Assembly: GCA_934149245.1 (NCBI GenBank)
Contig: CAKPER010000004.1
Coordinates: 3,757-67,756, forward strand
Length of the DNA: 64,000 nt
Origin: an uncultured Bacilli bacterium
Lineage (GTDB): Bacteria; Bacillota_I; Bacilli_A; RF39; UBA660
Direction: 5' to 3'
The notes under the pieces were generated by a model, which was not told the DNA's origin, did not search any database, and saw nothing but the letters and a program-made list of their open reading frames with translations. A program made the translations under genes and the position numbers. Below, one piece after another: positions 1,328-51,910 of this stretch (positions within the stretch are counted from its first letter, which is position 1; the number at the start of each line of letters is the position of its first letter).

Positions 1328-2959
1328 TTATTTTTCCACTTCTATATTTATAGTGTATGACTGTTCACTATTATTTTCATTTATATTTAATTTATATCCC
1401 AATGATTCTAAGCTAATAGCCATATTTTTAAACATATTTATAACTGGAGTTACATCTTTTGGTGCTTGCATATTATTTATTGATGTATCCATATCATCAT
1501 CTTCTTCTGGTATTTCATCTAATTCATCATCGTCTTCATCATCAATATCATCTTCTGAATGATTATTAGGCATAGTGTTATTAGATGGAGAATTAGTATC
1601 TAAATTTCCGTCATTGCTTTGTGTAGGTTCATTTATTAATGGAGCTGGAGATATATTATTTGCTACTGATGATTGTTGAGTTTCATTTAAAGTATTTTGA
1701 CTTGATAGGTTTGGAATTATACTGTTAAGTGGATTAATATTATTGACTTCTTGAGTATTAATTGAAGAATTCGAGATTGGAGATTCATTTAAATTCGGAG
1801 TTGGAACAAAACCTTGATTAACTGAACTTGGTAGTGGTTGATTATACTGAACATCAGAAGTGATGTTAGGTGTAGTATTTATTTGATTATATGCAATATT
1901 ATCATTATTATTAGGTATTGATTGCATAGAATTATTTAATTGACTGTTATTATCAACTACCTGTTGTTGTAATGGCGTAGTATTTATATTTTGATTGTTT
2001 AATTGCTCCAAATTAGGAGTAATATTTTGTCCAGTTGCTAAAGAACTAAAATTTTCACTAGGATTACTTTTAAAATTACCAATATTATTATTTAATGGCT
2101 GGTTATTTTGCATACCATAATTACTAGTTTGTTGTTGAACGCTTTCTTGATTTGTTCCCGTTAAATCTATTAGAGGTGAAGGTGCTGTTAATGGTTGACT
2201 ATAATTCATTTGGTTAGATTGTTGTTGAAAAGAGCCAAAATTTGGTGATAAATTCATATTAGTTGGTTCATCTTCCAAAGATGGAAAAAATCTTCCTCCA
2301 AATGTTGGTTCCTGAACAGGTGATGGCTGTTGAACTTGTTGATTTAAATTATTATTATTTTCATTAATTAAATTATTTTGATTATTATTCATAATATTTT
2401 CTTCCCTTTCTTCTTCTTTATTTAATTCAGATAAACTAATAATATCAGAATTTATAGAATTATCTTTAAATGTAGGTTGTTGTATAGCTGAATCTATTTT
2501 ATAATTAGTTTCTTTATTAACTTTTATTTCTCTATTTGATAATTCTACTTTAGAATTAATTCTATCTAGAGGAATGCCTAATGATATGCTAATTTTTTCT
2601 TTATTTATATTAGGATATTCCAAAAGCTTTCTATATAAGAATGCCTCTTCTTTGCCAGATAATTCTTGTCTTTGAATATTGTCTAGAATAACCATTTCTA
2701 TCGCTTGTTCGTCAGTTAGATTTTGAATTATTACAGGTAATTTACTCATTCCTATTGCTTTTGCGGAATTATATCTCCTATTTCCTAAGATAATTTCATA
2801 TTGAATTCCCTTAGGTCTTACTACTAAAGGGGTTATTATTCCATGATTTTTAATTGAAGTTGCTAAATTATCTAAATTGTTGTAGTCATTATCTATATGC
2901 GATTGAAACTCTCCCGGAATTAACTCTGTAATACTTATATATTTAATATTTTCCTCCAC
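1328..2959 (-). CDS. ParB/Noc-family protein with a very long N/Q/S/P-rich low-complexity linker and an acidic tract
   Basis: GTG start with SD-like TGAGGGGA 5 nt upstream. The N-terminus carries ParB boxes (ILGNRRY = GxRR box; LDNIQRQEL = ENLQR-like box) and an HTH-like segment. Residues ~190-467 are low complexity and 468-491 are D/E-rich. The C-terminus (LGYKLNI...YTINIEV) resembles a ParB dimerisation tail. The gene sits next to rsmG, where noc lies in Bacillus. Confidence 0.75.
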   Translation of the reverse strand: MEENIKYISITELIPGEFQSHIDNDYNNLDNLATSIKNHGIITPLVVRPKGIQYEIILGNRRYNSAKAIGMSKLPVIIQNLTDEQAIEMVILDNIQRQELSGKEEAFLYRKLLEYPNINKEKISISLGIPLDRINSKVELSNREIKVNKETNYKIDSAIQQPTFKDNSINSDIISLSELNKEEEREENIMNNNQNNLINENNNNLNQQVQQPSPVQEPTFGGRFFPSLEDEPTNMNLSPNFGSFQQQSNQMNYSQPLTAPSPLIDLTGTNQESVQQQTSNYGMQNNQPLNNNIGNFKSNPSENFSSLATGQNITPNLEQLNNQNINTTPLQQQVVDNNSQLNNSMQSIPNNNDNIAYNQINTTPNITSDVQYNQPLPSSVNQGFVPTPNLNESPISNSSINTQEVNNINPLNSIIPNLSSQNTLNETQQSSVANNISPAPLINEPTQSNDGNLDTNSPSNNTMPNNHSEDDIDDEDDDELDEIPEEDDDMDTSINNMQAPKDVTPVINMFKNMAISLESLGYKLNINENNSEQSYTINIEVEK

Positions 2960-5629: not shown

Positions 5630-6982
5630 CTATTTTCCTAAACAAAATCTTGAGAATAATTCATCTAATAATTCTTCTTTATAAGTTTCTCCAATTATTT
5701 CTCCTAATGTTTCCCAAGATTGTTTTATTCCTAATTCAACTATCTCTATTGGCTCATTATTATCAATTGACTTAATTGATTCATCTATATATTCTAAAGA
5801 TTTTTTTAGAAGTGATATACTTCTAGCATCAGTTAAATATGTTAAATCATCAGATTCTATTTGGCCTAAGTTAAATAATTTTATTATTTCTTTCTTTAAA
5901 TCATCTAAACCTACTCCATTTTTAATACTTGTTTTTATATAACTTTCGGTTAAAATATTTAAATCAATTTTTTGTTCAAGATCACTTTTGTTTATAACCG
6001 TAATATGTTTTTTATCTTTTAATAAATCAAATATTTTTTTATCTTCTTCTTGTAATATTTCATTATTATTTAATATTAGTATCACTAAATCACTTTTGTT
6101 TATTATTTCTTTGCTTTTTTGAACACCTATTTTTTCAACAATATCATTTGTTTGTCTTATACCAGCTGTATCTATTATATTTAATACGACACCATTTAAG
6201 ATAATATTTCCCTCGACTATGTCTCTCGTTGTTCCCTCAATATCTGTAACAATTGCTTTTTCTTCTTCTAATAAAGCATTTAATAAACTACTTTTTCCAA
6301 CATTAGGTCGTCCTATTATCCCAACATTTATTCCATTTGTAATAATTTTTCCTTCTTGTGATTTTTTTATTATACCTTTTAATTTTTCATTGAATTTTTC
6401 CAAGAAAGGTTTTATACTTTTAGTTGTTAATTGTTCAATATCTTCATATTCAGGATAATCTATATTGACTTCTATGTGTGAAATAATTTTTATTAATTCT
6501 TCTCTTAATGTTTTTATTTTGTTTGTCACTTTTCCTGTTAATTGATTAATTGACAAATCTCTTGCACGTTCTGTTTTAGAAGAAATTAAGTTCATAATAC
6601 CATCTGCCTCTAAAAGATCAATTCTACCATTTAAAAATGCTCTCTTGGTAAATTCACCTGGCTCTGCTAACCTAGCACCATTTAATAGTAATAATTCCAA
6701 TATTTTATTTGTTGTTGCAACTCCACCATGACTGTTAATTTCTACTATATTTTCTGTTGTAAAAGTTTTGGGAGCCAGCATAACCGATACTAATACTTCG
6801 TCTATTACTTTATTGTTATCTACAATATATCCATAATTTATTGTATGGGTAGCAACCTTATTTAAATCTTTACCTTTCCATATTTTGTTAACTATTTTTA
6901 AACTATCAATTCCACTTACTCTTATTATTGAAATGGCTCCTACTCCAAGTGATGTTGATATTGCTGCTATAGTATCATTCAT
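5630..6982 (-). CDS. mnmE: tRNA modification GTPase MnmE (TrmE)
   Basis: G-domain motifs GRPNVGKSSL and DTAGIR. The C-terminus ends in the conserved CLGK. Synteny supports the call. Confidence 0.95.
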   Translation of the reverse strand: MNDTIAAISTSLGVGAISIIRVSGIDSLKIVNKIWKGKDLNKVATHTINYGYIVDNNKVIDEVLVSVMLAPKTFTTENIVEINSHGGVATTNKILELLLLNGARLAEPGEFTKRAFLNGRIDLLEADGIMNLISSKTERARDLSINQLTGKVTNKIKTLREELIKIISHIEVNIDYPEYEDIEQLTTKSIKPFLEKFNEKLKGIIKKSQEGKIITNGINVGIIGRPNVGKSSLLNALLEEEKAIVTDIEGTTRDIVEGNIILNGVVLNIIDTAGIRQTNDIVEKIGVQKSKEIINKSDLVILILNNNEILQEEDKKIFDLLKDKKHITVINKSDLEQKIDLNILTESYIKTSIKNGVGLDDLKKEIIKLFNLGQIESDDLTYLTDARSISLLKKSLEYIDESIKSIDNNEPIEIVELGIKQSWETLGEIIGETYKEELLDELFSRFCLGK

Positions 6983-10063: not shown

Positions 10064-10227
10064 AAAATTACACCTCCAAGTCAAATGCTATTTTATTATA
10101 TATGTTAATTAATTTTCTGTCAACTATTATACTTATAAAAACAATATTTTTTGAAATTTTTTACTTTTTTATTTTAATATTTCTAAATTTATAGTATAAT
10201 ATGTTTAAGAATAAGGAGGATGATTTC

Positions 10228-11976
10228 ATGTTTAAGGAAATAACCGCAATTAGTAAAAATTTTGCAATGGTTAAACTAGAAGGAAATGCTAGTGATGATT
10301 TACTCAATATGAATGTCATTTTTGAAGATGGAACAAAAAAAATACTAGGAGAGGTTGAAGAAGTCGATGGTCAGCAAATAAAGGTTAGTTTCCTGGGAGA
10401 ATTTGTTAATGATAAATTTTTAGGTGGTATTATTCGTAAGCCTAGCCTAACTTCAAAAATTAGAATGATAAATCAAAACGAGCTTAGTGAGCTTGTTGGT
10501 GACAATAATGATAAAAGTATGATATTGGGATTATCACCTCTTTATAATGACTATCCTATAAAAATTGATATTGATGATATGTGGAGTAATCATAGTGCTA
10601 TTTTTGGTAATACTGGTAGTGGTAAAACTTACGGAGTAGCCAGATATGTGCAAAATTTATTTAATATTCCAAATATCATACCTTTTAATAGTAATATTTT
10701 TATATTTAATAATACCGATGAATATGATAATGCCTTTAAAAGTATAAGTAATTTTAATATTAATTTTAACTATAAAATGTTCTCGCTTTCTGGTGAAAGT
10801 AGTAATAGAATTAGGTTACCATTATGGTTATTGTCTGTTGATGATTATGCTAACTTATTAGATGTTACAGAATACTCGCAACTTGCTGTTATAGAAAAAA
10901 TGTTAAGTTTAGTATCGGCATTTGCTCGTAATGATGAAGAATCAAAAAGATACAAAAATCATTTAATAGCTAGTGCTATAACATCAGTTTTATATACAAA
11001 TCAAACTCCAGGAAGAATAAGGGATCAAATATTTTCTATTTTAGAAAAGTGTAACACTGATGAATTAAACTTAGATTTTGAAGTACCTGGAATTGGGTAT
11101 ACTAGACAATTTAGAAAATGCTTTGAAATTGATAGTAAAGGAGAATTTGCAGAGCGTGTTTTAATTGCTGAATATATTCAAAAATTTATTGATAATACAA
11201 CTAAATGGAATGAAGATTTTGTACCTATCTATTTTACACTAGATGACTTGGAGACTGCTCTTAATTTTGCTCTTATTTCCGAAGGATTATTACTTAATGA
11301 AAAATCATATTCAGCTGCTATGGCTTTAAAAGTAAGATTGCATACTCTAAATAATAGTAGTTATAAAAAGATTTTTGAATATGATAGGTTTGTTAACGCA
11401 ACTGAATTTTTGATGGATATAATTATGATAGGTCAAAACAAGAGAGCACAAATTATTAATTTTGTATTAGAAGGCATCGATGACAGATTTGCTAAAGCTA
11501 TTGTAAAAGTTTATTGTAGAATTATTTTCAAGTTTAGTAAAGGTTTAAAAGAAAGAGGCGCAATGCCAATACATTTAATGTTAGAGGAAGCTCACAGATA
11601 TGTACAACGTGATAATGATATAAATATATTAGGTTATAATATGTTTGAAAGAATTGCTAAAGAGGGAAGAAAATTTGGAGTTGTACTCGACTTAATTACG
11701 CAAAGACCTACTGAGTTATCTGAAGCAGTTATTTCACAATGTACTAATTTTTTGATATTTAAAATAACACACCCAACTGATTTGGATTATATAAGAAAAA
11801 TGGTACCAAATATTAGTTCCGATATTATAGAAAAACAAAAATCATTGCAATCTGGGACTTGTGTTGCTTTTGGAAAAATGATGAAAATTCCTATGATTGT
11901 AAAAATGCAATTACCTAATCCAGAACCTAAAAGTTCTAATGCATCTATATATAATAAATGGATGGTAAATATTTAA
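10228..11976 (+). CDS. HerA/FtsK-superfamily ATPase (DUF87-type, HAS-barrel N-terminus)
   Basis: The preferred start is ATG 10228, which has AAGGAGGA 8 nt upstream; the track start at 10201 has no SD. Motifs: Walker A GNTGSGKT, Walker B HLMLEEAHRY and ITQRP. The N-terminal beta-barrel-like segment resembles a HerA HAS domain. No NurA, SIR2 or nuclease partner ORF is adjacent. Confidence 0.8.
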   Translation: MFKEITAISKNFAMVKLEGNASDDLLNMNVIFEDGTKKILGEVEEVDGQQIKVSFLGEFVNDKFLGGIIRKPSLTSKIRMINQNELSELVGDNNDKSMILGLSPLYNDYPIKIDIDDMWSNHSAIFGNTGSGKTYGVARYVQNLFNIPNIIPFNSNIFIFNNTDEYDNAFKSISNFNINFNYKMFSLSGESSNRIRLPLWLLSVDDYANLLDVTEYSQLAVIEKMLSLVSAFARNDEESKRYKNHLIASAITSVLYTNQTPGRIRDQIFSILEKCNTDELNLDFEVPGIGYTRQFRKCFEIDSKGEFAERVLIAEYIQKFIDNTTKWNEDFVPIYFTLDDLETALNFALISEGLLLNEKSYSAAMALKVRLHTLNNSSYKKIFEYDRFVNATEFLMDIIMIGQNKRAQIINFVLEGIDDRFAKAIVKVYCRIIFKFSKGLKERGAMPIHLMLEEAHRYVQRDNDINILGYNMFERIAKEGRKFGVVLDLITQRPTELSEAVISQCTNFLIFKITHPTDLDYIRKMVPNISSDIIEKQKSLQSGTCVAFGKMMKIPMIVKMQLPNPEPKSSNASIYNKWMVNI

Positions 11977-12356: not shown

Positions 12357-12642
12357 TTTTCCACAGTTTTAAACTTTTTAATTATACACATAGAAAAGTA
12401 GATAAATATAAATTAAGTGCTCAATAAAATCACTGTATATTTGATTAGTAAATTTTACGTAAATCATGATTACTCACAACTTTCAACAAAGGATATTTTA
12501 ATCCACATGGAGAAAAAGTTTTCCACATGTGGAAATTTTTTAGGTAATAATACCTGTTGAAAAATATCAAAATTCCTTATTTAACAAGAAAAATTGCTGT
12601 TCGCTTTTTTTATGTTTTTTATTTAGAAAAAAGTTTTCCACA
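12357..12642. promoter_or_regulatory. oriC left part: DnaA-box cluster upstream of dnaA
   Basis: Boxes compared with TTATCCACA: TTTTCCACA 12357-12365; TAATCCACA 12499-12507; TTTTCCACA 12519-12527 abutting inverted TGTGGAAAT 12528-12536 (18-bp near-palindrome); TTTTCCACA 12634-12642. Several share the extended context AAAAAGTTTTCCACA. Confidence 0.8.
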
Positions 12643-12729
12643 GTTTTGCTTCTTGTTACTTAATAATGAAATTTAAACACTTTTATTTTTTTTATGATAA
12701 AATATCTTTAGATGTTGGGAGGTAAATTT

Positions 12730-14130
12730 ATGAAATTAGAAAATTTATGGAATGATTTTCTTTCAAGGATAAAGGAAAATATTTCTTCACTTTCTTATGA
12801 AACCTGGTTTAAAGATACAAAACTAGTTTCTTTAAATAAGGATAATTTAGCTATTGTTGTTGTTCCGATGCCTTTTCATAAAAAACATCTAGTTGAAAAT
12901 TATCTAAATATAATGGAAAAAACCATATATCTTATCACTAAAAAACAATACAACTTCGAATTTTTATTAGAAGAAGAATGGACAGAAAGAACTGAAAATG
13001 AGACTTTCAACAATCTATCTAATAATAAAATCTTGGAAACTCCAGAAAGAAAAAACGCTAATATTATACATCAAAATATTGAAGATGCAAATTTAAACAA
13101 AGAATATGTTTTTGATACGTTTATTGTAGGTAATTCAAATAGATTTGCTTACACAGCCTCTATGGCCGTAGCTGAAAAACCTGGAAAAGCTTATAATCCA
13201 CTATTTTTATACGGAAAAAGTGGGCTTGGAAAGACTCATTTAATGCATTCAATAGGTAATTATATAATTGAAAATTCAAATTTAAAGGTGTTGTACATAT
13301 CTAGTGATAAATTTGTTAATGATTTTATTAATGCTGTTAGATATAATGAAAAAGATAATTTTGATAAAATAGATGTTTTTAAAAATAAGTACAGAAATAT
13401 TGATGTATTGATGATTGATGATATTCAATTTTTGGGTAATGCAACAAAAGGACAGGAAGAATTTTTTCACACATTTAATGAATTGTATAATGAAAACAAA
13501 CAAATAGTTATAGCATCTGATCGCTCAGTTGATGACTTAAAAATGTTAGAAAATAGATTACTTACTAGATTTAATTGGGGATTAACAGCAAATATTACGC
13601 CTCCAGATTTTGAATTAAGAGTTAATATAATAAAAAAGAAAATATCTCATCAAGAATCTGCCAAAGATGTTCCAATTGAAGTAATAGAGTATATTGCTAA
13701 TAATTTTGCATCTGATGTCAGGCAACTTGAAGGAGCAATTACAAGAGTTTTCGCTTATGCTTTAATGATGAATAAAGGCAAAATTGATTTAGATATTGCT
13801 ATTGATGCGTTGAAAGATCAACTAACTGATAAGAGTGTTTATAAAAATGATGTACACAGAATTCAGACGGTAGTTTGCGATTATTTTAAAATTACCATAG
13901 AAGATATAAAAGGAAAAAAGCGCAGTCAGAATATCAACTATCCAAGACAAGTAGCTATTTATTTATGTAGAACATTAGCTCATGAATCATTTCCTAAAAT
14001 TGGAACATATTTTGGTGGAAGAGACCATTCAACAATAATGAGCTCTTACCGAAAAATTGAAAAAGACTTAAAAGAAAATGAACAACTCAAAATAGTAATA
14101 AAAGAACTAAAAGAAATGTTATCCACATAA
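12730..14130 (+). CDS. dnaA: Chromosomal replication initiator protein DnaA
   Basis: The preferred start is ATG 12730 (GGGAGG 8 nt upstream). AAA+ motifs GKSGLGKTHL and LMIDDIQFL. C-terminal DnaA signature region (YLCRTLAHESFPKIGTYFGGRDHSTIM). Confidence 0.97.
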   Translation: MKLENLWNDFLSRIKENISSLSYETWFKDTKLVSLNKDNLAIVVVPMPFHKKHLVENYLNIMEKTIYLITKKQYNFEFLLEEEWTERTENETFNNLSNNKILETPERKNANIIHQNIEDANLNKEYVFDTFIVGNSNRFAYTASMAVAEKPGKAYNPLFLYGKSGLGKTHLMHSIGNYIIENSNLKVLYISSDKFVNDFINAVRYNEKDNFDKIDVFKNKYRNIDVLMIDDIQFLGNATKGQEEFFHTFNELYNENKQIVIASDRSVDDLKMLENRLLTRFNWGLTANITPPDFELRVNIIKKKISHQESAKDVPIEVIEYIANNFASDVRQLEGAITRVFAYALMMNKGKIDLDIAIDALKDQLTDKSVYKNDVHRIQTVVCDYFKITIEDIKGKKRSQNINYPRQVAIYLCRTLAHESFPKIGTYFGGRDHSTIMSSYRKIEKDLKENEQLKIVIKELKEMLST

Positions 14131-14259
14131 TAAAGTTGATAATTTAAAAAGTTTCCCACATAGCTGTGGAAAAAATATTTTAATGAAAGCTTATAAAATA
14201 AGAGTTTTTTTATGTTTTCCACAGAATCCACATCATAATAAATAATAATATAATAAAAA
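14119..14259. promoter_or_regulatory. oriC right part: DnaA boxes in the dnaA-dnaN spacer followed by an A/T-only candidate unwinding run
   Basis: Perfect TTATCCACA at 14119-14127 overlaps the last dnaA codons. Further boxes: TTTCCCACA 14152-14160 facing TGTGGAAAA 14165-14173; TTTTCCACA 14215-14223; GAATCCACA 14224-14232. A 25-nt run of A/T only follows at 14235-14259. Confidence 0.75.
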
Positions 14260-14275
14260 GAAAGAAGGAATAAAA

Positions 14276-15428: not shown

Positions 15429-15488
15429 CTATTTTATGTTTTAATATCTTTAGTGCAACTTTTATAGTTGTGCAAAAGGGGGGATAAT

Positions 15489-15959
15489 ATGTTGAAAAAC
15501 TATATAATTAATGATGAAACTTTATTACTAATTCCATATTTTTATAATGGTGCTAATATTACAAAAGTTTATGAATTTGATGAAGAGTTATTAGTTGAAA
15601 AACTACCTTATGAAATTATAAAAGAGAGTTGCTTATTTTTTGGTAGTTCCTTCGAGGGCAGAAGAGATGGAACTATGGCTTTAATTAATTGCAAGATGAA
15701 GGTGCCTGTTATAATAGAGGAGTCTAGGAAAATACTATTTTTTCCAACATGTTCAATTGAAAATTCAAATAACATGTGGATTTCATATAATAACATGATA
15801 AATTTTAATAAGGTTGATTCAAAAGAAACTGTTATTAATTTTAAGAAAAATAAATCAATAATGGTTAATGTCAAATATAATTTAATTGATAATCAATTTG
15901 TTAGATGCATAAAGCTAGATTCAGTTATTTCAAATAGGTTTGATAAGCATTTATATTAA
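15489..15959 (+). CDS. comK: ComK-family competence transcription factor homologue
   Basis: The preferred start is ATG 15489 (AAGGGGGG upstream). It aligns by eye with B. subtilis ComK blocks: SCLFFGSSFEGRRDGT, KVPVII, ILFFPTCS, MWISY. Confidence 0.8.
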   Translation: MLKNYIINDETLLLIPYFYNGANITKVYEFDEELLVEKLPYEIIKESCLFFGSSFEGRRDGTMALINCKMKVPVIIEESRKILFFPTCSIENSNNMWISYNNMINFNKVDSKETVINFKKNKSIMVNVKYNLIDNQFVRCIKLDSVISNRFDKHLY

Positions 15960-19167: not shown

Positions 19168-21645
19168 ATGCAAGATGATATAAGAGATAGAAAAGTGGCA
19201 GTTGATATAGTTGGTGAAATGAAAAAATCTTTTTTAGATTATTCTATGAGTGTAATAGTTGCTAGAGCTATACCTGATGTTAAGGATGGTTTAAAACCTG
19301 TTCATAGAAGAGTTCTTTACACTTTGTATGAGGAGGGAATGACCCCAGATAAAAAATATCAGAAAAGTGCAAATGCTGTTGGAGCAGTTATGGGACATTA
19401 TCATCCACATGGAGATTCTGCTATTTATGATACTATGGTTAGAATGGCACAAGATTTTACTTATAGACATTGTTTAGTTGATGGTCATGGTAATTTTGGA
19501 TCTATAGATGGTTTTGGAGCAGCTGCAAGTCGTTACACAGAAGCTAGATTATCCAAAATTTCTATGGAATTGTTACGTGATTTGAATAAAGATACAGTTG
19601 ATTTTTCTGATAACTATGATGGTCAAAGAAAAGAACCTGTTGTTTTACCAAGTAGATTTCCAAATATATTAGTAAATGGGAATATGGGAATTGCTGTTGG
19701 AATGGCTACTAATATTCCACCTCATAATCTTGGAGAGGTAATAGATGGGTGTATTGCTTATATAGATAATCCTGATATTACAGTATCTGAACTAATGAAT
19801 TATATACAAGGTCCAGATTTTCCTACTGCTGGTGTTATTTTAGGAAATTCAGGAATTAGAAGGGCTTATGATACGGGTAGAGGTTCTATTACAATTAGAG
19901 GAAGAGCTGAAATTGATGAACATCATGGTAAGAATAGAATTATAATAACTGAGCTTCCATATCAGGTTAATAAAAAGTCATTAATAACCAGAATTGGAGA
20001 GTTAGTTAGAGATAAGGTATTAGATGGAATTAGTAATTTAAGTGATGAGTCTGCATTAGAAGGTATAAAAATTGTTATAGATGTAAAGAAAGATGCGAAT
20101 GCAAATGTTGTTTTAAATAATTTGTATAAACATACTCAGCTTCAAGTTTCTTATGGAATTAACTTTTTAATGTTAGTTGATGGTAGTCCAAGAACTATTG
20201 GTTTGAAAGAAATTCTTGAAAAATATATAGAGCATCAAAAGCATGTTATATATAGAAGATGTAAATTTGAGCTTAATAAATATAAATCGAGGTTACATAT
20301 ATTAGAGGGATTAAAAATAGCTCTTGATAATATTGATAAGGTTATAAAAATTATTCGTGAATCAGAAAGCGATGATATTGCCAAAAAAGGATTAATGCTT
20401 GAATTTGGTTTATCTGATTCTCAATCACAGGCTATTTTAGAAATGCGTTTGAAACGTTTAACTGGTTTAGAAAAATCTAAGATAGAGGATGAAATTTCGG
20501 AGTTGTTAAAATTAGTAGCTCATTTAGAAGAAATTATTAGTGATGAGCATAAAATTCTTGATGTCATAAAGAAAGAGATGCTTGAAATTAAGGAAAAGTA
20601 TGCTGATGACAGAAGAACTTATATTGATATGAGTGCTATTGACTTTATAGATGATGAATCATTGATACCTGTGGAAAATATGTTTTTGACACTTACTAAT
20701 AAGGGATATATAAAGAGAGTGCCTATTGATACTTATAAAACTCAAAATAGAGGTGGAGTTGGTATAAAAGGTATGTCGACTAATGAAGAGGATTTTGTGG
20801 AATATATTTTAAACGCTACAACTCATGATTATATATTATTTTTCACAAGTAATGGTAGAGTGTTTAGAATGAAGGGTTACGAAATTCCAGAATATAGCAG
20901 GCAATCCAAAGGTTTACCTTTGGTTAATTTGATAAAGTTAGAAAATGGTGAAAAAGTTACTTCATTGTTGAAAACTACTTTAAATGAGGATTATAAGTAT
21001 TTAATATTTGCTACTAAAAATGGTTTAATTAAGAAAACTGATATTTCAGAATTTTTAAATATTAGAACTAATGGAAAGAAAGCTATAACTCTTAAAGATA
21101 ATGATGAGTTAGTTTCTGTTAAAAAAACAACAGGTGAAAATGAAATTTTAATGGCGTCATCTATCGGAAGGATGGTTAGATTTTCTGAAAATGGTATTCG
21201 AGTTATGGGAAGAAATGCATCTGGTGTAAAGGGTATTGATTTATCTGGAAGTAGTTTAGTAGGTATGGAAGTTGTTGAAAATAATCAAGATGTATTTGTT
21301 GTGACTCGTAATGGTTATGGCAAGAAAACTCCAGTGGACGAATATAGAATAACTAGTCGTGGTGGAAAAGGAGTTAAGACATTAAATGTAACAGAAAAAA
21401 ATGGTCCTATTATATCTTTTAAAACTGTTGATAATGAAAATAAAGAACAGGATTTGTTGATTGTTACAAACGAAGGAATAGTAATAAGAATAAAAATGGA
21501 ACAAATTTCTACAATGAGTAGAGTTACTCAAGGAATAAGATTAATTAATCTTAGGGATGGACAATTTGTTAGTACAGTATCTATTGTTGACAGTGAGAAC
21601 GAAGAAGATAATGAAAAAGATAGTTCTTTAGATACTAATGTTTAA
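19168..21645 (+). CDS. gyrA: DNA gyrase subunit A
   Basis: QRDR-like region HPHGDSAIYDTMVRMAQ and the active-site AAASRYTEARL. A C-terminal beta-pinwheel is followed by an acidic tail. Confidence 0.98.
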   Translation: MQDDIRDRKVAVDIVGEMKKSFLDYSMSVIVARAIPDVKDGLKPVHRRVLYTLYEEGMTPDKKYQKSANAVGAVMGHYHPHGDSAIYDTMVRMAQDFTYRHCLVDGHGNFGSIDGFGAAASRYTEARLSKISMELLRDLNKDTVDFSDNYDGQRKEPVVLPSRFPNILVNGNMGIAVGMATNIPPHNLGEVIDGCIAYIDNPDITVSELMNYIQGPDFPTAGVILGNSGIRRAYDTGRGSITIRGRAEIDEHHGKNRIIITELPYQVNKKSLITRIGELVRDKVLDGISNLSDESALEGIKIVIDVKKDANANVVLNNLYKHTQLQVSYGINFLMLVDGSPRTIGLKEILEKYIEHQKHVIYRRCKFELNKYKSRLHILEGLKIALDNIDKVIKIIRESESDDIAKKGLMLEFGLSDSQSQAILEMRLKRLTGLEKSKIEDEISELLKLVAHLEEIISDEHKILDVIKKEMLEIKEKYADDRRTYIDMSAIDFIDDESLIPVENMFLTLTNKGYIKRVPIDTYKTQNRGGVGIKGMSTNEEDFVEYILNATTHDYILFFTSNGRVFRMKGYEIPEYSRQSKGLPLVNLIKLENGEKVTSLLKTTLNEDYKYLIFATKNGLIKKTDISEFLNIRTNGKKAITLKDNDELVSVKKTTGENEILMASSIGRMVRFSENGIRVMGRNASGVKGIDLSGSSLVGMEVVENNQDVFVVTRNGYGKKTPVDEYRITSRGGKGVKTLNVTEKNGPIISFKTVDNENKEQDLLIVTNEGIVIRIKMEQISTMSRVTQGIRLINLRDGQFVSTVSIVDSENEEDNEKDSSLDTNV

Positions 21646-21662
21646 TATATATATTTATTTTG

Positions 21663-21699
21663 AAAAGAACATATTTAATTTCTTGATATGTTCTTTTTT
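21663..21699 (+). terminator. Intrinsic terminator after gyrA
   Basis: 12-bp stem: AAAAGAACATAT (21663-21674) pairs with ATATGTTCTTTT (21686-21697). The loop is 11 nt and a T-run follows. Confidence 0.75.
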
Positions 21700-21700
21700 A

Positions 21701-21716
21701 TGTTTCACGTGAAACA
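21701..21716. promoter_or_regulatory. parS site, perfect 16-bp palindrome TGTTTCACGTGAAACA (module 1)
   Basis: Exact match to the Firmicute Spo0J/ParB parS consensus TGTTNCACGTGAAACA. The palindrome extends to 18 bp (ATGTTTCACGTGAAACAT). DnaA box TTTTCCACA follows 9 nt later (21726-21734). Confidence 0.85.
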
Positions 21717-22265
21717 TTTTTTTAGTTTTCCACACTCTATAAAAAAGATAGAGTGTCTTCAAATTAAATTGATTGTTGATATGGCAAGAATTAAGCTAGC
21801 TTATTTAATATCCACAACATTTAAATTACTATAAAATATTTTTTTATTATATATCATTATTAATATAATATTTAATTTTTAAGTTAATCTATATAAAAGT
21901 ATTTGTTATAAATTATTTAATACACTATAAAAATTTAGTTAGGTTTATATTTTTAAATTTTATTTGATATAGATATCATTATTTTTCGTATTACTAGTTT
22001 TGTTATATGTATGTGATTGCTTGTTATTAATAATGAAACATATTTGTTGATAATTTATTTAAATTAAAAGTAGTTATAAACATAATGATTAAAGTATTAT
22101 ATATATAATTAAAGTAGTAAGAGTAAATTATTGTCATTTTGATAGTTAAAAATTAAGATATATACATATACATATTTTAAATTTTTAAAAATAGTTAGAT
22201 TAGTAGGTATTTATTTTTAATGTTTAATAATTAATATATATAGTTATTATTTATTTTATTGTGGG

Positions 22266-22328
22266 AAATTGAATAGATATTAAACATATTATATTTTAAA
22301 TTTAATTAAATTTCCACAAATTGAATAG
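22266..22328 (+). repeat. Direct 11-mer repeat AAATTGAATAG, each copy abutting a DnaA-like box
   Basis: Copies at 22266-22276 and 22318-22328 (52-bp offset). The first follows TGTGGGAAA and the second follows ATTTCCACA. Confidence 0.6.
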
Positions 22329-22471
22329 TTTAATTGTTTTAAATAGATTAGAAATCAAATTTTGGTGTGGATAATTTTACTATATCTGAATTTATATTTG
22401 TAATATTAGTTGGGTAATTTCTATAAATTAATTTTATATTTAATGCTAATCTTTTTATTATTTACTTTTTT

Positions 22472-22487
22472 AGTTTCACGTGAAACA
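22472..22487. promoter_or_regulatory. parS-like site AGTTTCACGTGAAACA (module 2; 15/16 match to consensus)
   Basis: 14-bp perfect palindrome core GTTTCACGTGAAAC. DnaA box TTTTCCACA follows 7 nt later (22495-22503). Confidence 0.8.
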
Positions 22488-22828
22488 TAAAAAGTTTTCC
22501 ACATCCAATGTTTTTAGTAATTTTATTGTTGTTAATTAAAATTGCTCAGATATATTGTAATATAGTTAATTTGTACAAAATAATATAGTTTTTGAAAAAT
22601 TAACTCTGTAATAAAACTTTTTCTAAAAAAACTAATAATTTTGGTACAAATTGTGAAATAAAAAAGTATTGTTAAAGCTATATATATTACTAATTGATTA
22701 ACAATAATTATTATAAAATTCAAAATAAAATGTAAAGATTTTAGCTATTTATTATTTTTCGTTTTTATTAAATTTAATAAATTATTGGAAGAAAGTGTAG
22801 CTTTTTTATTAATTAGTGATTTAAATAT

Positions 22829-22845
22829 TATATATATATATATAT
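22829..22845. repeat. (TA)8 dinucleotide microsatellite
   Basis: Read directly from the sequence: tatatatatatatatat. Confidence 0.9.
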
Positions 22846-23356
22846 TAAATAAGTTTTGAACAGACTAAAAAAAAGAGGTTTTGAATATCTATTAGCATTA
22901 AAAAAACGTAGAATAAAATAATTTTATAAATATTAAACAGACAGTCTCTTAGGTTGTGGAAAATCACTAAATTAACAACTATATTTATTTTTACTACTTA
23001 TGGATGTATGATATAGCCTGGAATTTTAAACAAAAAATTAATATTAATATTTATATATTATGTAAGGTAAAAGTAATGTATGACTATAATTCAGTAGAAT
23101 ACGAAATATGATATGATAATAAAAATAGAAATTTATTTTTTTCTGTTTTATACATTTTAGATTCTAGATTGAAAAATCAATATATAAGTTATTAAAATAA
23201 ATTAAATTTATGTAGAAACTATTGTTACTTTTTGGTGTTGTTTATTGTTAACATTTTTGACGGTTGGGTGAAAAAATATATTTTTATGGTGAATTTAAAT
23301 ATTTTATGTTATTTGCTTGCATTAATTATTTTTAATATTATGTATATTATTTTTTA

Positions 23357-23372
23357 TGTTTCACGTGAAACT
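23357..23372. promoter_or_regulatory. parS-like site TGTTTCACGTGAAACT (module 3; 15/16 match to consensus)
   Basis: Same 14-bp palindrome core as the other two modules. DnaA box TTTTCCACA follows 6 nt later (23379-23387). Confidence 0.8.
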
Positions 23373-23429
23373 TTTTTGTTTTCCACAGTTATAAATATAA
23401 AAACTTTACTTTTATTACAAAATATGGTA

Positions 23430-23518
23430 CTATTTTTTCGATGCAACGATTTTTTAATAGAATCAAGTCAGGATCGGAAGATAGCAGCTTTAATATTATA
23501 TGTCGTGTGCATCAATAG
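23430..23518 (+). ncRNA. ffs: Signal recognition particle RNA (small bacterial 4.5S/scRNA type)
   Basis: Conserved helix-8 core AGUCAGGAUCGGAAGAUAGCAGC, with a GGAA tetraloop closed by GAUC/GAU (compare E. coli GGUCAGGUCCGGAAGGAAGCAGC). Flanking pairings are GATGCA (23440-23445) with TGCATC (23508-23513), and CTATT (23430-23434) with AATAG (23514-23518). It lies directly upstream of dnaX, like scr in B. subtilis. The exact ends are uncertain. Confidence 0.75.
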
Positions 23519-23530
23519 ATATTAAAAAAA

Positions 23531-36028: not shown

Positions 36029-36562
36029 ATGAAAACAACTGGTATAATTAGAAGAATAGATGATTTAGGAAGAATAGTTATTCCAAAAGAATTAAGAAGA
36101 AATTTAAGAATTCAAAATGGTGATTCTTTAGAAATATTTGTTGATTTGAATTCCATTGTATTAAAAAAATACTCTCCTATGGAAAGTATTGAAGAATCTG
36201 CACTTAAGTATGTAAATAGCTTTAATCAAGTTCTTAAGCGTAATGTTATTGTTTGTGATAAGGAGAAAGTTATTGCTGTAAGTGGCGAATTACGTAAGAA
36301 ATATATTGGAAAAGGTATAAGTGAACAAATGATGCATAGTATGGAGAGACGGGATAGTTTTGTTGAAAGGCAAAAAAAAGAATTTTCCTTTGTTGATGGA
36401 ATTACGGATGTTGGATATTATTCTTTTTGCTCAATAGTTAGTAATGGTGATCTTTTAGGTGCTGTTATTATTGTATCGCTTACTTCTGCATTATCAGAGT
36501 CTGAGGAGCAGATGGCGGTTATTTTAGCTAAATTACTTGAAAATAAATTTATTTGTGATTAG
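36029..36562 (+). CDS. spoVT: Stage V sporulation protein T (AbrB-family regulator with GAF-like C-terminal domain)
   Basis: SpoVT/AbrB N-terminus MKTTGIIRRIDDLGRIVIPKELRRNLRI..GD.LEIF. The 177-aa length is typical of SpoVT. Confidence 0.9.
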   Translation: MKTTGIIRRIDDLGRIVIPKELRRNLRIQNGDSLEIFVDLNSIVLKKYSPMESIEESALKYVNSFNQVLKRNVIVCDKEKVIAVSGELRKKYIGKGISEQMMHSMERRDSFVERQKKEFSFVDGITDVGYYSFCSIVSNGDLLGAVIIVSLTSALSESEEQMAVILAKLLENKFICD

Positions 36563-43986: not shown

Positions 43987-44766
43987 ATGGGTGATATTGT
44001 GATAAAAATTGGAGATTATGTTACACGTATATCATATAATAATGATATTATTTTTAAAGTAGTTGATATAAAGGATAATAATTATTTTTTAGTTGGAGCT
44101 TATCTTAGGTTATCTGCTGATAGTCCAATTGATGATTTGAAATTATATGATGGTAATATTAATGATGATAACTTTAAGATAGATTTTAGTGATTATTCAA
44201 ATTTGGATAGAAATGATTTTTTTTATTTGCCAGGAAAAATATTACATATTGATGGCGATGAGGAATTTTTGAGGAGAAGTTTAGAATTTTATAAAAAAAA
44301 TAGGATTAAAGCTTATGGATTATTTTTAAATGAATCTGATTTGAGTGATAATTTATATGATTATTTGGTAAAGTATAATCCCGATATTTTAGTTATTACT
44401 GGTCATGATGCTTTATATAGAAAGAAAAATAGAAATGGTACATATAAAAATACTAGTAATTTTGTTTCTGCTGTTAAAGAGGCTAGAAGATTTGAAAAAT
44501 CACATGAGAAGCTTATAATAATAGCTGGTGCTTGTCAATCGAATTATGAAGAGCTAATAAAGGCTGGTGCTAATTTTGCTTCTAGTCCTAAAAGAATTAA
44601 TATTCATGCATTAGATCCTGCAATAATAGCAGGTTCATTGGCGTTTTCTGATAAAAATGAAAATATTAATCTTATAAAAATACTTGAAAAAACAAAATAT
44701 GGTTCTGATGGAATAGGTGGCATTATTACTAAGGGAACGATGTATGTAGGTTTTCCAAGAGAATAA
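43987..44766 (+). CDS. yabG: Sporulation-specific protease YabG (peptidase U57)
   Basis: N-terminal IGDYVTRISYNNDIIFKVVDI parallels Bacillus YabG. The core ILVITGHDA...GACQSNYE matches, and ksgA-yabG-veg synteny supports it. Confidence 0.85.
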   Translation: MGDIVIKIGDYVTRISYNNDIIFKVVDIKDNNYFLVGAYLRLSADSPIDDLKLYDGNINDDNFKIDFSDYSNLDRNDFFYLPGKILHIDGDEEFLRRSLEFYKKNRIKAYGLFLNESDLSDNLYDYLVKYNPDILVITGHDALYRKKNRNGTYKNTSNFVSAVKEARRFEKSHEKLIIIAGACQSNYEELIKAGANFASSPKRINIHALDPAIIAGSLAFSDKNENINLIKILEKTKYGSDGIGGIITKGTMYVGFPRE

Positions 44767-50155: not shown

Positions 50156-50241
50156 AGTAGGAAGATATATTTTATAAAATCTCTTTATTTTTGCTGTGAA
50201 ATTTGATACAATGGATTATGTAGGAGATAAGGGTGAGTATT

Positions 50242-51039
50242 ATGGGAAAGGTAATAGCAATTGTAAATCAAAAAGGTGGTGTAGGCAAAACAACTACTAG
50301 CATTAATTTGGCTGCTTCTTTGGGAGCCTTAAAAAAGAAAGTTTTGTTGGTTGATTTAGATCCACAAGGAAATGCAACGACTGGTGTTGGTATTAATAAA
50401 GGTGATATTAATAGTAGTATTTATGAGGTTTTAGTGATGAAGACACCTATAGAAAAAGCAATTGTTAAAACTAAAACTAAAAATTTAAGTGTGTTACCCG
50501 CATATTTAAATTTAGCTGGTGTTGATATGGAACTTATTGAAATAGAAAAACAATATCGTCAAAAAGGTGAGAAGTTTAATAGAGTACTTAGGTTAAAAGA
50601 AGAACTTGGTAAAGTTAAGGATAGGTATGACTTTATTTTAATAGATTGCCCTCCTTCTTTGGGAATTTTGACAACTAATGCTTTAGGTGCTTCTGATAGT
50701 GTACTTATTCCTGTTCAATGTGAATATTTTGCTTTAGAAGGAATTATGCAACTTATAAATACTATAATGTTAGCCCAAAAAAAGGTAAATCCTAATCTTG
50801 ATATAGAAGGGGTTTTATTGACTATGTTGACTACTAATACAAATTTAGGGTTAGAGGTTGTTGAAAGTATAAAAGGATTCTTTAAAGAAAGAGTTTATGA
50901 CACTATAATTCCGAGATTAATAAGATTAGCTGAGGCACCTTCGCATGGAAAGCCGATTTTAGAATATGAACCTAGAAGTAAGGGAACTGAGGCTTATTTG
51001 AATTTAGCTAAGGAGGTTATTGATAAAAATGGAGCATAA
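50242..51039 (+). CDS. soj: Chromosome partitioning ATPase Soj/ParA
   Basis: Deviant Walker [12 protein letters not shown]. Full-length ParA pattern ([17 protein letters not shown]). The preferred start is ATG 50242 ([13 protein letters not shown]). Confidence 0.95.
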
Positions 51040-51910
51040 AAGACAAGCTCTTGGTAAGGGGTTAGAGCAGTTATTTAGTAGTGAGGTTTTGGATTTTGAT
51101 TCTTTTGAAGATAATATAATGGAAAATGCTAAGGAATCTGATATTATACAAATTCCTGTTGAAGATATTAGGCCAAATCCATATCAGCCTAGAAGAAGTT
51201 TTGATCAACAAGCTTTAGATGAATTGGCTACTTCTATTAAAAATTATGGTGTGTTCCAACCTATTATAGTAAAGAAAAGTATAAAAGGTTATGATTTAGT
51301 TGCTGGAGAAAGAAGACTTAGAGCTTGTAAATTAGCTGGTCTTGATACTATACCTGCAATAGTAAAAGATTTTTCTGATGAGGAGATGCGTGAGATAGCT
51401 CTTTTGGAAAATCTACAAAGAGAGAATTTAACTTCTATTGAGCTTGCTTGGGCATACAAAGGAATAATTGATAGTTTGCATATTAGACAAGAAGATTTAG
51501 CAGCAAAAATAGGAAAGAGTAGAAGTCATGTTACAAATACTTTAGGATTATTGAATTTACCAAATGATGTTCAAGATATGGTACTTGATAATAAGTTGTC
51601 TATGGGACATGCTAGAGTACTTAGTAAGATGAAAGATGAAGACAAAGTAGAAGAATTGGCAAATAAGGTTGTTAAAGATAATATTAGTGTAAGAGATTTA
51701 GAAGATATTTCAAGTAAAAGTAATATTTCTAAGAGAGTTCAAGTTAATAGATTACCTAAAACCGAAAACCAATATAAGTATATTGAAAATGAATTAAGAG
51801 ATATACTTGGAACTAAGGTTAGAGTTGAAAATAAAAAAATTGAGATTTTTTTCGAATCTTCTGTTGATTTGACAAGGATATTAGATATTTTGAATGTTAA
51901 TGTTGATTAA
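51029..51910 (+). CDS. spo0J: Chromosome partitioning protein Spo0J/ParB
   Basis: [11 protein letters not shown]-terminus, ParB boxes [15 protein letters not shown] and ENLQRENL, an HTH, and the C-terminal [16 protein letters not shown]. Confidence 0.93.

Follow-up and report, generated by a model that had tools for sequence, protein, structure and literature searches.

The coupling of replication initiation to chromosome segregation is known case by case, through Soj and DnaA in Bacillus, a parS-located DnaA in Caulobacter, and RctB and ParB2 in Vibrio. In Bacillus subtilis, the Spo0J parS sites, with the consensus TGTTNCACGTGAAACA, reportedly load ParB and SMC near oriC (Lin & Grossman 1998; Gruber & Errington 2009). 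Bacillus parS sites are spread over hundreds of kilobases and are mostly intragenic, and Bacillota parS sites are usually scattered in genes. Clustered parS arrays near oriC occur in Caulobacter and Myxococcus, and Corynebacterium glutamicum is said to possess a clustered chromosomal array as well. Pseudomonas parS1-4 are likewise clustered near oriC, according to an excerpt of PMC4368675. In Caulobacter crescentus, DnaA binds boxes in the parS centromere via its domain IV, and centromere movement requires DnaA-ATP (Mera, Kalogeraki & Shapiro 2014, as related in an excerpt of PMC6399470). According to Okumura et al. (2012, PMC3245932), DnaA-box clusters close to the B. subtilis origin act with Spo0J/Soj to hold back initiation. 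On chromosome II of Vibrio cholerae, rctA/parS2 is bound by both ParB2 and RctB (PMC3141006 and PMC3688505, excerpted and in part via PMC6399470).

The locus described here lies in a 64,000-nucleotide stretch of DNA (the window) from an organism known from metagenomes only. Between the stop codon of gyrA (21645) and an SRP RNA gene on the forward strand (23431-23525; Rfam RF00169, 52 bits), which forms the right-hand boundary, extends an AT-rich spacer (21646-23430), gene-free over a length that no other stretch in the window approaches. Its G+C content of 16.6% compares with 26.1% for the window and 18-25% for the other intergenic spacers, an AT-richness only modestly above that of ordinary spacers at this locus. 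The two 60-nucleotide lines quoted in a preliminary description (21841-21900 and 21901-21960) indeed hold 4/60 and 6/60 G+C. We also agree with that description that no credible ORF separates gyrA from the SRP RNA: no wholly contained ORF exceeds 63 amino acids, and a 97-residue frame (23232-23525) spans module 3 and the SRP RNA gene. In Rfam, even at E≤1, the tract matched the SRP RNA alone and no further family; promoter-like sites are not more frequent in it than in shuffled sequence, a simple terminator scan found no terminator-like site inside it, and apart from the modules the window's tract yielded no repeats, whether tandem or long. The ORF, Rfam, promoter and terminator scans together speak against a hidden gene or RNA. 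An intrinsic terminator of gyrA is located at 21662-21699 on the forward strand, just upstream of module 1; it consists of a 14-bp stem followed by a U-run (-13 kcal/mol, z = -5.5 versus shuffles) and was missed by the simple scan because its stem has only two G-C pairs. Judged by these features, the tract appears to be a dedicated spacer that looks untranscribed.

Three modules occupy this spacer, each a composite of a parS and, after it, a putative DnaA box (pattern TTTCCACA, or TGTGGAAA when flipped). Module 1 carries the perfect parS consensus TGTTTCACGTGAAACA at 21701-21716, the same in nine other assemblies of the species, and a forward-strand box GTTTTCCACA at 21725-21734, the 9-mer of which (TTTTCCACA) begins at 21726, 9 nt past parS. 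In module 2, parS (22472-22487) reads AGTTTCACGTGAAACA, with one mismatch, where most other strains have TGTTTCACGTGAAACA; the 9-mer of its forward-strand box (22494-22503, GTTTTCCACA) begins at 22495, 7 nt past parS (8 nt in other strains). Module 3 combines parS TGTTTCACGTGAAACT at 23357-23372, with one mismatch and identical in other strains, with a forward-strand GTTTTCCACA at 23378-23387; here the 9-mer begins at 23379, 6 nt past parS, and about 45 nt separate the end of the box from the downstream SRP RNA gene. All three parS sites match the 16-bp palindrome consensus TGTTNCACGTGAAACA (0, 1 and 1 mismatches). Their positions, the shared order of parS then TTTTCCACA with all boxes on the forward strand, and the separation of module starts by 771 and 885 bp are as the preliminary description gave them. 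The T-run that it had counted as part of the module is merely AT-rich context, and a constant distance between parS and box has to be abandoned, with gaps ranging over 0-9 nt. A search of the 64 kb for TGTTTCACGTGAAACA with up to three mismatches yielded just these three sites (0.24 expected), in line with the earlier impression that no parS-like site lies elsewhere in the window; the CACGTG sites beyond the tract (29692, 47619 and 56782) have flanks unrelated to parS. Since the three modules recur in nine independent assemblies of the species, they are not an assembly artefact.

Five further DnaA-like boxes had been reported between the modules, and all five are found. Four are of the consensus type: ATATCCACA at 21808-21816 (forward strand), partly kept by other strains as AAATCCACA; ATTTCCACA at 22310-22318 (forward), inside a 36-nt island of perfect within-species identity; the perfect consensus TTATCCACA at 22366-22374 (reverse), which other strains replace by TTTTCCACA in a box-preserving change; and TTTTCCACA at 22955-22963 (reverse). 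The fifth, near 22259, is weaker and was recognized by inspection. At 22955, other strains read TTTTCCACC and carry a new TTTTCCACA about 60 nt away, a difference that has the appearance of box turnover. The 10-mer GTTTTCCACA occurs seven times in the 64 kb, always on the forward strand, where 0.09 copies are expected by chance; four copies flank dnaA (12356, 12518, 12633 and 14214), three belong to the modules and none is found elsewhere in the window. The pattern [TA]T[AT]TCCACA has seven matches within 2 kb at the tract versus seven in the approximately 60 kb outside oriC (about 0.12 per kb). The tract has the make-up of a DnaA-box cluster, namely predicted boxes of oriC-type sequence clustered in non-coding DNA away from oriC. 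Shuffling of the spacer with parS held fixed gave an expectation of 0.0007 composites per spacer in the window versus three observed; across three species the expectation was 0.0007-0.002 per spacer, and 3/3, 5/6 and 4/4 were observed. These numbers support the view that the pairing of predicted parS sites with oriC-type DnaA boxes is real and far beyond chance.

The dnaA gene itself is located at 12712-14130 on the forward strand (Pfam and NCBIfam DnaA), with boxes upstream (12357-12642) and downstream (14119-14223). In the dnaA-dnaN spacer (14214-14260), two tandem boxes are followed by a run of TAA/ATA triplets and AT-rich DNA. A standard bipartite oriC is thus predicted at the flanks of dnaA. 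The tract is origin-proximal, on the right of the dnaA-dnaN spacer at a distance of 7.4-9.2 kb, matching the roughly 7-9 kb from the unwinding region estimated before. Trans-acting partners are encoded in the window by a ParA/Soj-type ATPase gene (50233-51039, forward; Pfam AAA_31 and CbiA, NCBIfam ParA family) and a canonical ParB/Spo0J gene (51020-51910, forward; Pfam ParB_N and HTH_ParB). This pair has CTP-binding and ParA-stimulating motifs, and the ParB displays GERRLRA, an ENLQRENL stretch and an N-terminal LGKGL peptide; it is expected to load at the three parS sites. A Noc-like ParB paralogue of 543 amino acids (1328-2959, reverse), with a ParB_N domain and a long N/Q-rich linker, adjoins rsmG; its top NCBIfam match is nucleoid_noc, under the cut-off of that family. 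It is possible that this paralogue acts as a second protein on origin-region DNA; a search for Noc sites with up to two mismatches found none in the window. An orphan ParB lacking ParA, as the 543-residue protein after rsmG might have suggested, is ruled out by the parAB operon at 50233-51910. When DnaA residues were compared with the presence of boxes, the only differences were at positions 46 and 65 of domain I and at some positions of the linker, in a set of three taxa versus five that is too small to carry weight.

Within the species, the flanking genes are 99.1-99.6% identical and the spacer interior 84% (66% with gaps counted); the spacer evolves about 15 times faster than these genes. 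Despite this divergence, the parS core and the box of module 2 are unchanged. Modules 1 and 3 reside in within-species identical blocks beside the conserved flanks, and module 2 alone tests constraint at this scale. For comparison between species, loci of 3.6-22 kb each were fetched from 21 related species whose GyrA is about 60-100% identical. All 21 have a gene-free AT-rich gyrA-dnaX spacer with 3-7 parS sites, the count dropping below three only where the contig or the 8-kb block ends, and every parS of the fetched loci falls inside this spacer. The proposal of a dedicated non-coding centromere is upheld by this uniformity; an rRNA operon or ordinary genes at the same position in relatives, which had been named as evidence against it, were encountered in none of the relatives sampled.

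Pairing with a DnaA box is all-or-none per genome. It affects 27 of 32 parS sites in ten species with GyrA 64-100% identical, those of clade B having been found via the motif itself and hence with ascertainment bias, and none of 57 in eleven other related species. Among species fetched via GyrA instead of the motif (n=14, window included), three show pairing, and the idea of a fixed property of the lineage does not survive these counts. Sampling of metagenome contigs with GyrA patterns, which were too general, retained 80 loci, of which only five came from close relatives. In paired species the gap is 0-9 nt and the relative orientation constant, the T-rich end of the box facing parS; two genomes have the module as a whole facing the other way with respect to oriC. 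Box variants (TTATCCACA, ATTTCCACA and TAATCCACA) stay within DnaA-box degeneracy. Interspecies alignments are confined to the modules and the SRP RNA region; pairing is conserved in nine other species in which the nearby DNA has drifted beyond alignment. The box-less species possess larger parS arrays, with one to three stray boxes still in the spacer. As they keep or expand these arrays, the boxes appear to be dispensable for centromere function, and pairing, missing in eleven species that retain the array, is by this comparison unnecessary for it.

The similarity among the three modules of the window stops at about 25 nt of AT-rich flank. A generic dispersed repeat, the other outcome named as adverse, is ruled out by the three copies, all in the tract. 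Two specific candidates were rejected: the many non-origin copies with terminal inverted repeats of a MITE, and the G+C-rich hairpin with T-run of a terminator family, were not found for the modules in the window, nor does the terminator scan flag them. A composite scan of 185,579 species genomes returned at least 120 loci, and 90 of 120 among the matches listed adjoin origin-region genes. The matches listed also include single conserved pairs of parS and box in about 18 Acidobacteriaceae species and several Treponema. In candidate-phyla genomes, 7-11 parS sites were noticed downstream of gyrA.

On these grounds we favour, with moderate confidence, a model in which the tract is a chromosomal centromere where DnaA at the parS-adjacent boxes influences ParB loading or escape in cis and is itself titrated. 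ParB (51020-51910) would load on the three parS sites as a CTP-dependent clamp and engage ParA (50233-51039), and SMC would be recruited by ParB, by analogy with Bacillus. DnaA most likely binds the module boxes, against the ParB nucleation site or obstructing it, so that occupancy by DnaA would affect the loading or escape of ParB in cis, and vice versa. The spacer boxes would also draw DnaA off oriC, and assembly of the segregation complex would thereby be tied to the initiation state. As each parS has a box and extra boxes lie between the modules, the spacer appears to double as an origin-proximal DnaA-box cluster in the species of the window and in scattered relatives. It is plausible that the modules serve cross-talk of Soj/Spo0J with DnaA, or titration of DnaA. 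The sites, their statistics and conservation and the genes for ParA, ParB and DnaA are observed; protein binding at the sites and the direction of coupling, be it competition, roadblock or cooperation, are inferred. The gap of 0-9 nt, with no constant helical phase, argues against a single rigid protein-protein geometry, and the mirrored module in two genomes argues against a role tied to chromosome direction. More tentatively, and with considerable doubt, the modules may constitute a cis-encoded checkpoint that would have arisen or been kept repeatedly. DnaA, sitting 0-9 bp away from parS, would directly control whether the ParB-CTP clamp loads or makes its one-sided escape, or else ParB would control the access of DnaA. 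If this were true, a particular initiation state would be required for building the segregation complex.

Alternatively, a parS centromere and a titrating cluster of the datA/DBC type could share the spacer as two independent functions, the boxes needing just origin proximity and non-coding DNA and their adjacency to parS being without mechanistic meaning. According to the title of one paper (PMC7614844), ParA controls B. subtilis initiation independently of where parS is located, which counts for such a separation. Four further boxes have no parS beside them, stray boxes persist in the spacers of box-less relatives, and the effect of the B. subtilis DnaA-box clusters is mostly one of gene dosage, not of exact position (PMC3245932). 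Independent placement in a spacer of 1-3 kb, however, predicts about 0.001 pairs, compared with the 27 of 32 parS sites that have a box at 0-9 nt in one relative orientation, and boxes are conserved between species solely as part of a module; we therefore regard two unconnected functions as rather unlikely. Still less probable, in our estimate, is that the box is a passenger: parS arrays duplicate a short unit, and a founder may have chanced to include a DnaA box that is idle at the centromere. The all-or-none distribution (27/32 versus 0/57) is also what would be expected from such concerted evolution of a duplicating unit, module orientation is uniform in each genome, parS copy number differs within one species (6 versus 4), and relatives contain recent tandem duplications of parS units (91 bp x4.4 at 92% identity; 226 bp x2.6 at 87%). 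Yet the modules of the window and of two relatives (L001 and L007) are not recent copies, their flanks being unalignable and free of tandem structure. Of the 13 modules of three species, 12 moreover retain the 8-9 nt box in spite of the roughly 15-fold faster change of the spacer, and it is also retained in species just 64% identical in GyrA; the variants TTATCCACA, ATTTCCACA and TAATCCACA follow DnaA-box degeneracy, which indicates selection on recognition by DnaA.

A further reading does without DnaA as the reader. Another protein, such as the Noc-like paralogue, whose gene lies beside rsmG, or ParB on a third half-site, might recognize the parS-adjacent sequence, since TGTTTCAC resembles GTTTTCCAC; the likeness of the parS half-site to GTTTTCCAC, noted by inspection, is loose, and in one relative (L141) a perfect Noc site abuts parS. 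Against this, the leading G varies in relatives (tagATTTCCACA, TTATCCACA) whereas TCCACA is kept, the 10-mer of the modules also dominates among the boxes around dnaA, and the window has no Noc site at up to two mismatches, all of which makes another reader very improbable. The least credible of the readings considered makes the tract an element of the replication origin, either a third cluster of boxes or an alternative unwinding region. It is very AT-rich, with seven boxes no more than 9 kb from dnaA. The DnaA-trio element is a run of trinucleotide repeats directly after the paired boxes of an unwinding module. Tandem boxes followed by such a run are present at 14214-14260, but the boxes of the modules are single, widely spaced and, on inspection, followed by no triplet run. 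A predicted standard bipartite oriC already flanks dnaA, the minimum of the cumulative GC skew, where it switches, is near 10 kb and away from the tract, and relatives without boxes keep the spacer.

The model of a centromere with DnaA acting beside parS is of interest in that a compact module sets the predicted sites of two key DNA-binding proteins, ParB and DnaA, side by side. The related genomes amount to a natural experiment, with the module at nearly every centromere site of one genome and sister species that keep the centromere without boxes. As B. subtilis shares the parS and DnaA-box consensus sequences, the module is directly testable in that organism, or with purified proteins. It is furthermore unusual among Bacillota for a non-coding spacer to serve as a dedicated centromere and to be conserved at a fixed syntenic position, as in this uncultured gut lineage.

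The preliminary description was aware of no account of a fixed unit of parS and DnaA box; a link between the two has its closest precedents in the boxes of the Caulobacter centromere (excerpt of PMC6399470) and in the B. subtilis clusters acting with Spo0J/Soj (PMC3245932). As in Caulobacter, initiator sites lie within the centromere several kilobases from the origin, here as predicted boxes 6-9 nt from each parS; Caulobacter belongs to another phylum, and the excerpt of PMC6399470 describes no repeated, oriented unit of one box per parS there. The rctA/parS2 locus of V. cholerae also has neighbouring or overlapping sites for centromere protein and initiator, for which cross-regulation has been shown in Vibrio and which are predicted sites here, but it involves a plasmid-type initiator, a secondary chromosome and unrelated sequences. 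With the clustered arrays of C. glutamicum, Caulobacter, Myxococcus and Pseudomonas the tract shares several parS sites near oriC that form one centromere. Those arrays span genes and tens of kilobases or are without paired DnaA boxes, whereas the tract is non-coding, conserved and fixed in its syntenic position. Like the DnaA-box clusters of B. subtilis, which are near the origin, and datA of Escherichia coli, it carries consensus boxes outside oriC in intergenic DNA; those clusters are compact, often in promoters and not interleaved with parS, whereas the boxes of the tract span 1.8 kb and three of seven abut parS. The closest overall resemblance in components is to B. subtilis, with the same 16-bp consensus in an origin-proximal location and with ParA, ParB and a Noc-like paralogue encoded; unlike in B. 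subtilis, all parS sites of the window are gathered in one gene-free spacer of 1.8 kb, each beside a DnaA box.

Three parS-like 16-mers, starting at 21701, 22472 and 23357, are the sole matches in the 64 kb of the window at up to three mismatches; the DnaA box TTTTCCACA comes after each of them, on that strand, at gaps of 9, 7 and 6 nt (modules M1, M2 and M3). The preliminary description had reported this arrangement and orientation, and the absence of any other parS-like site; both hold, as does its account of the surrounding tract between gyrA and the SRP RNA gene (21646-23430) as gene-free and ultra-AT-rich. The tract contains no ORF of more than 63 aa wholly within it and no Rfam match, and has 16.6% G+C compared with 18-25% for other spacers. 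With the spacer shuffled and the parS positions fixed, 0.0007 composites of parS and box are expected, versus three observed. Four further consensus-type DnaA boxes lie between the modules, and the gyrA terminator, a strong hairpin with a U-run (21662-21699), is distinct from module 1.

The window covers the origin region of a strongly AT-rich genome (26% G+C). In its left part, rsmG, mnmG, mnmE, jag, yidC and rnpA lie on the minus strand, followed on the plus strand by a HerA-like ATPase gene, dnaA (12712-14130), dnaN, comK, recF, gyrB and gyrA (19168-21645); to the right of gyrA stand the tract, the SRP RNA gene (23431-23525), dnaX, ybaB and recR. Cumulative GC skew changes direction at about 10 kb. 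The HerA/DUF87-type ATPase gene (584-591 aa; 10201-11976, plus strand; 1538-3292 in the relative L001) interrupts the usual rpmH-dnaA origin spacer and is kept in nine of nine clade-A genomes (GyrA identity of 79% or more) whose loci reach far enough upstream. The dnaA-dnaN-recF-gyrB-gyrA block is otherwise invariant apart from a ComK-family gene between dnaN and recF (15468-15959, plus strand; alike in clade-A relatives; 723-1172 in L019), which is in two pieces in strain L005. SpoVT-like and YabG-like genes (36029-36562 and 43987-44766) suggest that this Bacilli lineage may form spores.

Among the spacers of the window, L001 and L007, alignment is possible only at the modules and over the SRP RNA and its promoter, which answers in the affirmative the question whether the module is kept while its surroundings drift. 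The same was examined within the species by comparison with nine other assemblies (L131-L139). There, identity is 99.1-99.3% in recF-gyrB-gyrA, with 4 differences over 1100 nt of dnaX, compared with 84% over aligned columns, or 66% with gaps counted, for the spacer interior (21741-23324), which carries indels of 10-120 bp, including deletions of 89 and 119 bp. This divergent segment begins directly after module 1 and stops just short of module 3; the non-coding DNA between the conserved modules is hypervariable here. Within it, M2 retains its parS core and its box without change; the 16-mer starts with A or T depending on the strain, and the gap gains one A. Given the interior's 0.34 changes per column, the probability that 24 columns stay unchanged is ~5e-5 if columns are independent. 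One extra box, TTATCCACA in the window, reads TTTTCCACA in the other assemblies; another decays, with a new box ~60 nt away. M1 and M3 sit in identical blocks beside conserved flanks and are uninformative within the species.

We compared the gyrA neighbourhoods of GyrA homologues and of a few close matches from metagenome contigs. GyrA homologues 99-100% identical to that of the window are present on many such contigs. The closest named relatives are labelled 'Bacilli bacterium', and a sister clade 'uncultured Mollicutes/Tenericutes bacterium'. Synteny is identical in every genome of clade A (ten species and the window): the gyrA-dnaX spacer is gene-free, 0.8-2.8 kb long, has 16-20% G+C and carries 3-7 parS, and all parS of each fetched locus (7-22 kb) lie inside it. 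Three species with GyrA ~60% identical have 3-5 parS directly downstream of gyrA. An rRNA operon or ordinary genes at this position, named beforehand as evidence against the proposal, occur in none of the relatives examined, all of which keep the spacer with parS. The dedicated non-coding centromere of the preliminary description thus recurs as a gene-free gyrA-dnaX spacer with a parS array in every relative compared, and this putative centromere is a universal feature of the lineage. Several relatives without boxes have built up their arrays through recent tandem duplications (units of 91 bp x4.4 at 92% identity and of 226 bp x2.6 at 87%); duplicated or copy-number-variable arrays lie at L009 12595-12993, L003 12669-13225 and L222 5794-6127, and two assemblies of one such species differ in copy number (6 versus 4 parS).

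Pairing of parS with a box is all-or-none per genome: 27 of 32 parS are paired overall, versus 0 of 57 in eleven other species. Three clade-A species have it, namely the window (3/3 parS, gaps of 6-9 nt), L001/L002 (5/6, 2-4 nt) and L007 (4/4, 2-4 nt); since they do not form one clean group on the GyrA tree, pairing must have been lost several times or gained several times. A search of species genomes for the pattern yielded, among the matches listed, seven sister-clade genomes (GyrA 64-66% identical to that of the window in the four that include gyrA), and all seven carry modules in the corresponding spacer: L019 (4/5 parS; two boxes are perfect TTATCCACA), L022 (3/4), L017 (2/3), L104 (1/2), L014 (1/1), and L061 and L072 (2/2 each), where the module is mirrored as a whole. 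As these genomes were recruited by the motif itself, their frequency is biased, but extra modules within their loci are still independent observations. In all pairs the T-rich end of the box faces parS, over gaps of 0-9 nt. At positions 46 and 65 of DnaA domain I (window numbering), the three box-paired clade-A species have L/V/I and L/S/L, called hydrophobic, and five box-less species polar residues (T/C/T/Q/Q and K/Q/M/N/N); as a possible co-evolving protein surface this is a weak lead, confounded by phylogeny.

The scan matched at least 120 loci, and among the matches listed most are single pairs. Origin-region genes (e.g. mnmG, rsmG, parB, gyrA, dnaA) are present in 90 of 120 blocks among the matches listed, which speaks against the anticipated objection that the unit is a generic dispersed repeat. 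Some pairs recur in conserved form between species: at least ~18 Acidobacteriaceae species have GTTCCACGTGGAACAAAAGATTTCCACA or a close variant in common; among the matches listed, the pair consists of GTTCCACGTGGAACA, AAAGA or AAAAGA, and TTTCCACA or a close variant (L012, L018, L027, L031, L035, L036, L059, L062, L063, L065, L078, L091, L098, L112, L119, L124, L127, L130), and mostly adjoins rsmG and/or a ParB-family gene. It could be a par operon promoter element under joint ParB and DnaA control. In at least six Treponema genomes (L073, L081, L108, L109, L110, L118), parS abuts a DnaA box, sometimes a box group; the pair lies downstream of gyrA in all five listed loci with gyrA and belongs, in three of these, to a group of 3-4 clustered parS. 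The 31-mer GTTTCACGTGAAACATAAAAAGTTTTCCACA of L110 matches module 2 of the window exactly. Three genomes of candidate phyla (Moraniibacteriota-type) have arrays of TGTTCCACGTGGAACA, 7-11 copies in 1.1-1.6 kb (L033 188-1469; L114 2500-4102; L034 1546-2624), directly downstream of gyrA in two of three loci and with an adjacent box at 1-2 copies only. Among the matches listed, Acidobacteriaceae and Treponema pair one parS of several, and only genomes of the Bacilli lineage have boxes at almost all their parS.

Genes for the cognate ParA (Soj), ParB (Spo0J) and DnaA are present, so that the Soj/Spo0J/DnaA circuitry has every component in the window. The canonical parA-parB operon (50233-51910, plus strand) encodes a ParB with an HTH domain, the 10-residue motif and the N-terminal LGKGL peptide, which stimulates ParA. 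The operon lies ~38 kb right of oriC, not beside rsmG/noc, and no parS is found within or beside it. Given this operon, a 543-aa ParB_N protein encoded next to rsmG (1328-2959, minus strand) was rejected as an orphan ParB. Its 150-aa ParB_N/HTH head, with GNRRYNSA where GERRxRA is expected, is followed by a long (~350-aa), low-complexity, N/Q-rich linker and a short C-terminal domain. We regard the protein as, most plausibly, a Noc-like paralogue. The window itself contains no Noc-type site (ATTTCCCGGGAAAT). A perfect ATTTCCCGGGAAAT palindrome lies 6 nt upstream of parS in the L141 spacer (~6519-6532; GyrA ~62% identical), and a Noc half-site follows a module in L019 (~7345); centromere spacers of the lineage may thus have gathered binding sites of several origin-region proteins.

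ParB forms a CTP-dependent clamp that loads at parS and then slides, and proteins bound to DNA can be roadblocks; in Bacillus, ParB-parS recruits SMC, and DnaA is controlled by Soj, which is controlled by Spo0J. In the spacer, consensus parS and oriC-type DnaA boxes are paired and conserved against a fast-drifting background. A reading in which DnaA and ParB are coupled at the modules seems to us moderately probable. One rival has independent centromere and titration functions in a shared spacer. Coupling is preferred mainly because 27 of 32 adjacent, co-oriented pairs are beyond what chance or independent placement can yield. Alternatively, the box may hitchhike neutrally within a duplicating parS unit; in its favour, the tandem arrays of box-less relatives attest such duplication; against it, the box of M2 has stayed unchanged amid hypervariable DNA. 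That box and parS always keep one orientation to each other may point to a defined arrangement or, instead, to shared descent of the units; neither a rigid geometry nor a role tied to chromosome direction fits well with the variable gap and the two mirrored genomes.

The box might also be read by a protein other than DnaA. The extended 10-mer GTTTTCCACA is found at seven places in the window, always on the plus strand (0.09 expected), four flanking dnaA and three in the modules; being common to oriC and modules, it marks the module boxes as the same kind as the organism's oriC boxes. That the tract is itself an origin element is a further rival. The box clusters expected of oriC are present on the dnaA flanks, and in the dnaA-dnaN spacer (14214-14260) the abutting boxes GTTTTCCACA and GAATCCACA precede a TAA/ATA triplet run and AT-rich DNA, which we take to resemble the Bacillus box-plus-trio unwinding arrangement. 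Under coupling, DnaA would sit on the boxes of the modules. Where 0-4 nt separate the two sites, it would contact ParB or exclude it and be excluded in turn, and at the 6-9 nt of the window the two could bind side by side; occupancy by one protein would alter how the other loads, or escapes on that side, and the tract's seven boxes would keep DnaA from oriC. As boxes were lost in most sister species, coupling would be an accessory rather than a core function.

Taken singly, arrays of parS, clusters of DnaA boxes and binding of DnaA at a centromere are already known: box clusters restrain initiation jointly with Spo0J/Soj (PMC3245932), and boxes in the Caulobacter centromere are bound by DnaA (PMC6399470). 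In the literature searched, whose coverage is incomplete, we came across no account of a unit of parS and DnaA box that is repeated. New are the one-to-one, co-oriented pairing at almost all parS of a genome, its recurrence across a deep lineage in which sister species cleanly have it or lack it, and the occurrence in Bacillota-like genomes of a dedicated, non-coding centromere whose syntenic position is fixed. The parS and DnaA-box consensus sequences of Bacillus subtilis are identical to those of the modules, which makes the module testable in that organism.
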